Shown here: positions 32,240-32,466 of the stretch, piece after piece | Position numbering within the stretch: the first letter of the stretch is position 1 | Layout: the number at the start of each line of letters is the position of its first letter | Virus record (IMG/VR): IMGVR_UViG_3300020020_000001 | Span: 16,171 to 80,170 of that record | DNA length: 64,000 nucleotides | Direction: 5' to 3' (one strand) | From: a virus | The notes under the pieces: model-generated | What the model was told of the DNA's origin: nothing | Databases searched by the model: none | What the model saw: the letters and a program-made list of their open reading frames with translations, nothing else | Program-made: the position numbers and the translations under genes

Positions 32240-32466
32240 TTAACGTGGTCTAGTTGGCTTAACTGGATGTGGTGGATCCTGGCGAGTTGGCTTAATTGGT
32301 TTACCAGGAACAGGCATTGGACGTGGTTCTGGTCTAGGATTTGATGGGTTGGGTCGATGTGCCATTAACGTGGCCTATTTGGTGGTACTGGGTGTGGAGC
32401 TGGTCTTGGCTGTGGAGGTAATGGCCTAGGTTGTGGTCTCATGGGTGGATTTACTGGATGTGGCAT
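32240..32466 (-). CDS. Two Pro/Arg-rich micro-ORFs (32365-32466, 32240-32365)
   Basis: 33 and 41 aa, TAATG-coupled, both end RPR-stop. Confidence 0.65.

Follow-up and report, generated by a model that had tools for sequence, protein, structure and literature searches.

Two coupled proline-rich micro-genes in a phage tRNA island

The window analysed here is a stretch of 64,000 nucleotides (nt), bases 16171-80170 of an IMG/VR soil phage record (IMGVR_UViG_3300020020_000001) of 80,170 bp with direct terminal repeats and a G+C content of 46.8%. Two very short open reading frames (ORFs) in it, ORF1 and ORF2, encode proline-rich, cationic peptides and lie on the minus strand in an island of tRNA genes (Table 1). 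From about 9 to 60 kb nearly all genes are on this strand, and 23 tRNA genes are located between positions 26065 and 43732. The host is probably an actinobacterium, judging by two proteins of the phage: the endolysin matched solely phages of actinobacteria, and most matches of the primase, including the best ones, were to such phages as well.

A first-pass annotation of the window had given both ORFs with their translations, which were confirmed by the sequence. The TAATG it had noted between them is located at 32367-32363, with one base common to the TAA of ORF1 and the ATG of ORF2, and the RPR-stop that it had seen in both was found to be encoded by AGR-CCA-CGT-TAA-T at both 3' ends. The ATG of ORF1 lies 4 nt past the stop codon of an upstream gene for a protein with three transmembrane (TM) segments. 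The ORF2 protein is present letter for letter in the ESM Atlas and has therefore been called by some gene caller; looking it up there gave no usable neighbour.

The two peptides match at their ends, with an N-terminal M-x-H...NP and a C-terminal PHPV-x-P-x-RPR directly before the stop codon. The module PHPV-x-P-x-RP occurs at both ends of ORF1, and the 34-nt unit coding for it was found three times, at both ORF1 ends and at the end of ORF2. A global alignment of the peptides scored 96, compared with 61.7 ± 7.9 in composition-preserving shuffles, none of 2000 of which was as good (z = 4.3). Judged by this alignment, ORF1 and ORF2 are paralogues beyond their shared composition. Synonymous codon differences were observed at 7 of the 21 identical aligned residues, including AGG/CGT, CAC/CAT, GTA/GTT and AGG/AGA. 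The proportions of synonymous (pS) and nonsynonymous (pN) differences were 0.58 and 0.26, with synonymous sites near saturation, and the resulting pN/pS of 0.45 is supporting evidence and not proof because the alignment is short and of low complexity. In the ungapped C-terminal block, the proline frame keeps 9 of 12 positions, whereas the two alternative frames keep 5 of 11.

Each peptide contains two PRP motifs. When compared with shuffles, PP dipeptides were depleted in ORF1 (3 versus 7.5 expected, p = 0.002) and in ORF2 (1 versus 5.2, p = 0.004), and P-x-P was enriched in ORF1 (9 versus 3.8, p = 0.006), with ORF2 likewise richer. The proline codons had been described as varied, which holds in so far as not all of the 31 are CCA; CCT occurs five times and CCC twice, but CCA accounts for 24 and CCG for none. 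The share of CCA is thus 77%, versus 50% in the long ORFs of the phage, where the ranking is CCA > CCT > CCG > CCC, reported to be the same for ORF1 and ORF2. Arginine is encoded by AGR in 10 of 16 cases, versus 25% in the reference.

A second cluster and the rarity of proline-rich ORFs

In a scan of the whole 80,170-bp genome, 1361 ORFs of at least 20 amino acids (aa) were found, only five of which encode at least 30% proline, all on one strand within 1.76 kb. In 40 Markov-1 genomes, used as a chance control, the mean was 0.10 such ORFs and the proline content never exceeded 33%. The set of proline-rich ORFs is beyond chance.

Three of the five, designated micro-ORFs A, B and C, had been missed by the first-pass annotation and are located on the same strand at 30707-30930, 1.4 kb downstream of ORF1 and ORF2. 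The ATG of B falls within the end of A (ATGCCTAA). An AGGAG, present at 1.2% of random positions, precedes A by 5 nt and C by 6 nt. The alignment of A and B beats shuffles (p about 0.01), and both contain uninterrupted proline runs, of ten residues in A and six in B. Acidic residues are lacking in four of the five window peptides and the charge is positive in all. At the downstream edge of this second cluster, a perfect hairpin of 12 bp (14 bp with one mismatch) at 30676-30709 holds the TAG of C, in its 5' arm, and the ATG of a gene for a 65-aa protein, and is likely a translational-coupling or start-masking element.

Neighbouring proline-rich ORFs abut in different frames and the proline-rich reading resumes after each frame change, as would be seen if they were pieces of one longer proline-rich protein, made by programmed frameshifting or cut up by assembly errors. 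This is very improbable. Each piece has an ATG or GTG of its own at the junction, both ORF1 and ORF2 are complete, with ends that match, the junctions contain no slippery heptamer or homopolymer run, and among 1.84 billion proteins no longer protein matches the profile built from the two peptides. A single frameshifted gene was rejected on these grounds.

Coding versus RNA evidence

The location of the clusters among many tRNA genes would suit a non-coding element, such as a structured small RNA or, on one strand or the other, a DNA site. The RNAs of the two clusters, however, are less structured than dinucleotide-shuffled sequences (z = +2.2 and +1.7). At an E value of 1 or better, Rfam returned the flanking tRNAs and none else. 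A structured RNA was excluded because of these two results. Moreover, no repeat architecture exists beyond the duplication of the coding module, and the plus-strand frames are Trp/Gly-rich and antisense to a region that is uniformly minus-strand, so that a non-coding element of any kind is scarcely credible.

No terminator-like site was found on the minus strand after either cluster. An attenuator working by an intrinsic terminator was rejected on account of the missing terminator/antiterminator hairpins and the low structure of the RNA.

Start and stop codons overlap or lie 4-7 nt apart. On the sequence evidence, ORF1 and ORF2 are probably real micro-genes, a point on which we are fairly confident. 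Whether they act in trans or in cis, they show that the tRNA islands of phages can contain organised and recurrent genes among the ORFs under the usual annotation cut-off of 30-50 codons.

A tRNA-bounded mini-operon

ORF1 and ORF2 are part of a mini-operon with the order tRNA-Ala, PnuC-like three-TM gene, ORF1, ORF2, 84-aa gene, 52-aa gene, tRNA-Asn. The sole homologue of the 94-aa product of the first gene, P0009, has a PnuC domain (PF04973); a full-length nicotinamide-riboside transporter is more than twice as long as this 'mini-PnuC'. The gene is probably a leaderless first cistron because its GTG directly adjoins the 3' end of tRNA-Ala (N73-C-GTG, offset 0).

The 84-aa gene belongs to a family with five homologues of 60-90% identity (P0002 and P0005-P0008) and with syntenic copies in two related phages, G002 (L008 5001-5258) and G003. 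The motif WETPGQLEPQL looks invariant and Cys/His residues are conserved (C...C-x2-C). Neither Pfam nor PHROGs gave an assignment for the family, and a scan of genome contigs with it returned nothing. On this conservation the 84-aa gene is real. A long-range stem of about 24 bp is predicted around it, with z = -4.87 and none of 200 shuffles folding as well. Ribosomes most plausibly reach the 84-aa gene via ORF2, because it has no Shine-Dalgarno (SD) sequence, its AUG is in the 24-bp stem and it starts 7 nt past the ORF2 stop codon. Read most simply, ribosomes would pass in a relay from a leaderless 5' end, generated by processing, across all five cistrons, and such a relay requires that ORF1 and ORF2 be translated.

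Start codons flush with a tRNA 3' end (N73-C-RTG) that open an ORF of at least 18 aa follow 9 of the 23 window tRNAs, versus a background of 2.9%. Comparable junctions were found in relatives at 7 of 17 tRNAs (locus L008), 5 of 10 (L009) and 4 of 10 (L022), with p values from 9e-9 to 1e-4 across loci. Examples in the window are tRNA-Ala/GTG at 32755, tRNA-Gln/GTG at 29677, tRNA-Ser/GTG at 37184 and tRNA-His/ATG at 39398. This arrangement suggests that tRNA processing releases leaderless mRNAs. At the tRNA-Gln junction, the flush start opens a very hydrophobic micro-ORF of 21 aa (VKFVSLFIIIITAIVLIGLVI, 29612-29677). Two small genes come closely after it: one shares 4 nt with its end, and the other begins 8 nt inside that gene.

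The surroundings had been called a translation island, and this description stands: besides the 23 tRNAs, the island carries Ro60 and a Fic/DOC gene, and further a peptidase (NlpC/P60) and a protease inhibitor (family I36). At 26295-26961, an upstream ORF of 99 aa is overlapped at its end by the Fic/DOC-family gene (126 aa; PF02661, E = 2.5e-14), and both are kept in G002 and G003. The pair may be a Doc-like toxin with a partner. The genes for the NlpC/P60 peptidase (38169-38975) and the family-I36 peptidase inhibitor (39481-39852) are located among the tRNAs; the Streptomyces metalloproteinase inhibitor belongs to family I36.

Table 1. Location of the proline-rich micro-genes and of the features around them (window positions, except for the pair of phage G002).
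Feature	Position	Strand	Peptide	Proline	Net charge	Remarks
ORF1 micro-gene	32365-32466	minus	33 aa, MPHPVNPPMRPQPRPLPPQPRPAPHPVPPNRPR	48%	+5	
ORF2 micro-gene	32240-32365	minus	41 aa, MAHRPNPSNPRPEPRPMPVPGKPIKPTRQDPPHPVKPTRPR	37%	+7	
Micro-ORF A	30862-30930	minus	22 aa, VPRPIQPPPPPPPPPPRPKPNA	64%	+3	GTG start
Micro-ORF B	30789-30869	minus	26 aa, MPNRPSTPPPPPPKPKPRSAPGPKFI	46%	+5	
Micro-ORF C	30707-30778	minus	23 aa, MANTPTPPRPIIPVPPANPPKPK	43%	+3	
Two-TM protein gene	30502-30699	minus	65 aa			Next after the second cluster; ATG within the 30676-30709 hairpin
tRNA-Pro (UGG)	33238-33310	minus				Reads CCA exactly; located about 0.8 kb upstream of ORF1 and ORF2
tRNA-Ala (UGC)	32756-32829	minus				5' boundary of the mini-operon
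PnuC-like three-TM mini membrane protein gene	32471-32755	minus	94 aa			phrog_2421, E = 2e-17
84-aa gene	31978-32232	minus	84 aa			WETPGQLEPQL motif, Cys/His; no SD; ATG 7 nt past the ORF2 stop
52-aa gene	31814-31972	minus	52 aa			Last cistron before tRNA-Asn; exact protein on 4 contigs
tRNA-Asn (GUU)	31709-31780	minus				3' boundary of the mini-operon
Stem, 5' arm	32208-32233	minus				Contains the AUG and opening codons of the 84-aa gene; inverted repeats I4/I5
Stem, 3' arm	31970-31993	minus				Contains the 84-aa gene's end and the 52-aa gene's start codon
R1 and R2 of G002, tandem proline-rich micro-ORFs	L008 7956-8150 (G002:C1:64729-64901)	minus				Between tRNA-Gln and tRNA-Ile(UAU)

Distribution among related phages and databases

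Syntenic relatives of the phage under study (G000) were recovered by alignment-based scans. The relative G002 has 81 kb, with a polymerase 68% and a helicase 82% identical to those of G000. G003 has 63.7 kb, the records L021, L022 and L026 are partial, and G001 is more distant, with a polymerase of 48% identity. With Ro60 as the query, only one distant relative was found in IMG/VR and metagenomes.

Exactly two proline-rich micro-ORFs are present in G002, the tandem pair R1 (MTNPNPPYPPRDPVKPIDPRPAPNSPKPTK, 30 aa) and R2 (MTPIDNPLPRPPKPPPPPPPKPTK, 24 aa). The ATG of R1 is flush with the 3' end of tRNA-Gln, the position used by 7 of the 17 tRNAs in that locus, and here as at the first cistron of the ORF1/ORF2 operon the N73-C-RTG start has no SD. 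Between R2 and tRNA-Ile, directly before the tRNA, lies a 5-bp GC hairpin with a GCAA loop. Both end in KPTK-stop, written with synonymous AAG/AAA codons, and R2 has a run of seven prolines. The RNA of the pair likewise folds worse than shuffles (z = +1.5) and no protein gene lies downstream. From its layout, the pair looks like a self-contained mini-mRNA built for stability.

The proline-rich micro-ORFs were absent from the five syntenic relatives G001, G003, L021, L022 and L026, counted as three whole or near-whole records and two partial loci, and are therefore patchy accessory cargo. Proline-rich micro-genes recur in this clade, patchily and in different slots. Orthology between the G000 and G002 peptides is unproven because their similarity is hardly above composition (p 0.03-0.1, not significant). 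The micro-ORFs were also considered as constant partners of the PnuC-like or the 84-aa gene, which was rejected: in G002 the 84-aa gene is flush with a tRNA without them, and the PnuC-like gene has no copy in the related phages examined.

Database searches with the peptides gave no family. PHROGs, Pfam, PADLOC and NCBIfam returned no match, an HMMER profile of ORF1 and ORF2 had no hits of any length among 1.84 billion representative proteins, a word-indexed search with ORF2 found no match, and no PDB chain matched at an E value of 10 or better. A tblastn search of the peptides against 50,697 phage records gave nothing, the queries probably being masked as low-complexity. In a DNA search of the region against phages, tRNA-Ala was the sole match, and single-protein scans of IMG/VR with two neighbouring genes returned nothing. 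The pattern PHPV[KP]P[TN]R, taken from the alignment of ORF1 and ORF2, had no confirmed match.

These results bear on the possibility that the micro-ORFs are young and fast-evolving, without a selected function. A CCA-rich module would have been duplicated locally in hypervariable slots between tRNAs, where the ORFs may be translated only by virtue of the operon. Their presence in two of the seven related records or loci examined would suit such an origin, as would the lack of a homologue among the proteins, families and structures searched, the low complexity with an internal repeat, and a similarity across genomes no better than composition. Against it, ORFs of this unusual kind occur seven times in two diverged phages and not once in the examined DNA of the other relatives, and each has a proper start, either SD-led, coupled or abutting a tRNA. 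The pN/pS below 1 between the paralogues at a pS of 0.58, and the uniformly positive charge, are also at odds with ORFs free of selection. On balance this explanation is unlikely.

Pacing of translation in cis

In another explanation the act of translation matters more than the peptides, so that the micro-ORFs would be a cis-acting pacing device. About 225 nt of C-rich, G-poor, unstructured RNA, rich in CCA and AGR codons, would be read at a speed set by the phage tRNA-Pro(UGG) and tRNA-Arg(UCU) and by the host elongation factor P (EF-P). Slow or absent translation would expose a Rho-loading (rut-like) tract, or leave the downstream genes without SD short of ribosomes, thereby tying the distal genes and tRNAs to the state of translation. 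Loss of EF-P is known to uncouple translation from transcription and to let Rho terminate (PMC5021804), and the two-proline mini-ORF CreT can arrest translation (bioRxiv 10.64898/2026.06.02.729485).

Several features of the locus agree with pacing. The tracts contain 37-39% C and 14% G, versus 22% C and 24% G in the island, and are less folded than shuffles. The preference for CCA and AGR over genome-wide usage is accompanied by matching tRNAs in the island, the downstream genes are coupled (gaps of 4 and 7 nt, and overlaps) with their starts buried in stems, and the second cluster has its runs of ten and six prolines. The C-richness is, however, an automatic consequence of proline codons, and ORF1 and ORF2 significantly avoid the diprolyl motif. 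Between the paralogues, non-proline residues are conserved and so are both termini, the minus strand lacks terminator/antiterminator hairpins, and the G002 pair has only a tRNA to regulate and no protein gene. Pacing in cis is an unlikely explanation; if it were correct, the locus would be a case of codon- and EF-P-paced gene control in a phage tRNA island.

Possible action of the peptides in trans

The fuller reading, which we prefer tentatively and at somewhat less than even confidence, is that the micro-gene peptides themselves act in trans. ORF1 and ORF2 would be tandem-duplicated micro-genes, translated by termination-reinitiation in the tRNA-bounded mini-operon, and their products strongly cationic, nearly acid-free peptides of alternating P-x-P built from the repeated PHPV-x-P-x-RP module. 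All micro-genes of both phages would then make up a set of proline-rich micro-proteins that is specific to phages and is carried between tRNA genes as patchy cargo. Inside the infected cell the peptides may bind a host machine in an extended polyproline-II form. The target with the best precedent would be the ribosomal exit tunnel or the peptidyl-transferase centre, with a block of translation like that of proline-rich antimicrobial peptides (PrAMPs), and DnaK the second.

PrAMPs are defined operationally by at least 25% proline, a net charge of at least +1, antimicrobial activity and the 70S ribosome and/or DnaK as target (PMC11678341). In composition all five window peptides fall within this definition, with 37-64% proline and net charges of +3 to +7; only this composition and the P-x-P pattern are suggestive of a PrAMP target. 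Tunnel-binding peptides typically have the alternating P-x-P seen in ORF1 and ORF2; a device for stalling at polyproline would have the opposite design. Proline-rich peptides of widely differing sequence fit the tunnel in either orientation, which one substitution can flip (PMC13233979), and peptides of the apidaecin (Api) type sit in it like a nascent chain, their genes being active when expressed inside bacteria (PMC11549390). Because of this tolerance and this activity inside cells, PrAMP-like action is possible.

The first-pass annotation had called the peptides apidaecin-like. Their make-up justifies this as far as PrAMPs in general are concerned, by the proline content and charge of ORF1 and ORF2, the PRP motifs and the alternating P-x-P; membership of the family is not supported, and the peptides appear at most PrAMP-like. 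Its further proposal, that they inhibit translation or modulate readthrough, is a guess. The apidaecin family is defined by a C-terminal PRPPHPRL, in which the penultimate Arg and the terminal Leu act as the warhead (PMC11549390). The C-terminal 8-mers of ORF1 and ORF2 match it at 3 of 8 positions and differ at both warhead positions, and no relative of the peptides was found in the word-indexed, HMMER and PDB searches. Peptides of the apidaecin type arrest ribosomes at stop codons by trapping the release factor after release has taken place, and so cause readthrough. A PrAMP-like block, in which ORF1 and ORF2 would act in the host ribosome exit tunnel, either when translation initiates or through the trapping of a release factor, and would thereby shut off or re-tune host translation, is conceivable but doubtful.

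A speculative variant would be a factor-specific block, hitting harder a host with mostly TGA stop codons. High-GC bacteria end their genes mostly with TGA, and 38 of 48 long ORFs of the phage end in TAA or TAG.

A number of observations weigh against action of the peptides in trans, or against the ribosome as its target. The micro-ORFs are dispensable, since they are missing from five syntenic relatives, and the peptides of G000 and G002 resemble each other barely more than their composition predicts. The alignment behind the pN/pS ratio, short and of low complexity, was itself picked by amino-acid similarity. The apidaecin C-terminal motif is absent, the ends being PVPPNRPR in ORF1 and PVKPTRPR in ORF2, and what points to the ribosome as a possible target is composition only. 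The runs of 6-10 prolines in the second cluster and in R2 of G002 suit ribosome pausing over tunnel binding. Finally, a global inhibitor of translation made early in infection would also harm the phage.

If the peptides bind the ribosome or DnaK, viruses would have reached the same solution as the PrAMP producers from inside the cell, and the micro-genes would provide genetically encoded tunnel ligands for Gram-positive, high-GC hosts, of use in antibiotic design.

Comparison with known systems

The architecture of the operon resembles the tRNA punctuation of animal mitochondria, reportedly described by Ojala, Montoya and Attardi in 1981. In both, start codons are flush with tRNA 3' ends, and excision of the tRNA would free a nearly leaderless mRNA. 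The likeness, known here from sequence, concerns only the operon architecture in a bacterial phage and not the activity of the micro-genes.

Leader-peptide attenuators likewise have a mini-ORF rich in codons of a nearby tRNA, as is the case here within a phage tRNA island. They differ from the present locus, in which there is no terminator/antiterminator pair, the cognate tRNA-Pro is upstream and protein genes follow.

CreT, from the type I-F CRISPR system of Pseudomonas aeruginosa, and the Pro-Pro arrest peptides (RAPP/RGPP) are tiny SD-led ORFs whose proline codons slow or jam ribosomes. CreT needs a stabilising hairpin past its ORF, and micro-ORF C and R2 of G002 likewise end at a hairpin. 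The consecutive prolines of polyproline arrest ORFs are present as long runs in A, B and R2, whereas ORF1 and ORF2 are PP-depleted. CreT further differs in having four sense codons, two of them proline codons that adjoin the stop, as part of a toxin-antitoxin system; ORF1 and ORF2 have 33-41 codons, are PP-poor with an Arg end and lie in operons.

PrAMPs are known from animals and some plants, and enter bacteria by import. In the literature search no natural phage-encoded counterpart was found, the sole hits being T7 phages into which apidaecin had been engineered. Type I PrAMPs (oncocin, Bac7, Bac5 and pyrrhocoricin) resemble ORF1 and ORF2 in their alternating P-x-P with Arg, repeated PRP, high charge and similar length. 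They have an N-terminal Arg cluster and a (Y/R)LPRP core, neither of which is present in ORF1 or ORF2. Type I peptides are imported through SbmA, while ORF1 and ORF2 would be made inside the target cell, the host being probably a Gram-positive with high G+C content.

Type II PrAMPs (Api and Fva1, of insects) are also short cationic peptides, rich in Pro and Arg, that contain PRP and PHP motifs; in ORF1 a PQPRP-A-PHP is present internally. They differ as units cut from a secreted insect pre-pro-polyprotein, where ORF1 and ORF2 are stand-alone phage ORFs of 33 and 41 aa with an initiator Met, and no homology between them is detectable. The PrAMP class arose independently in several animal lineages (PMC13233979). 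Should the phage peptides prove to bind the tunnel, proline-rich tunnel binders would have been invented independently for a third time, insects and mammals having come before, and for the first time by a virus.

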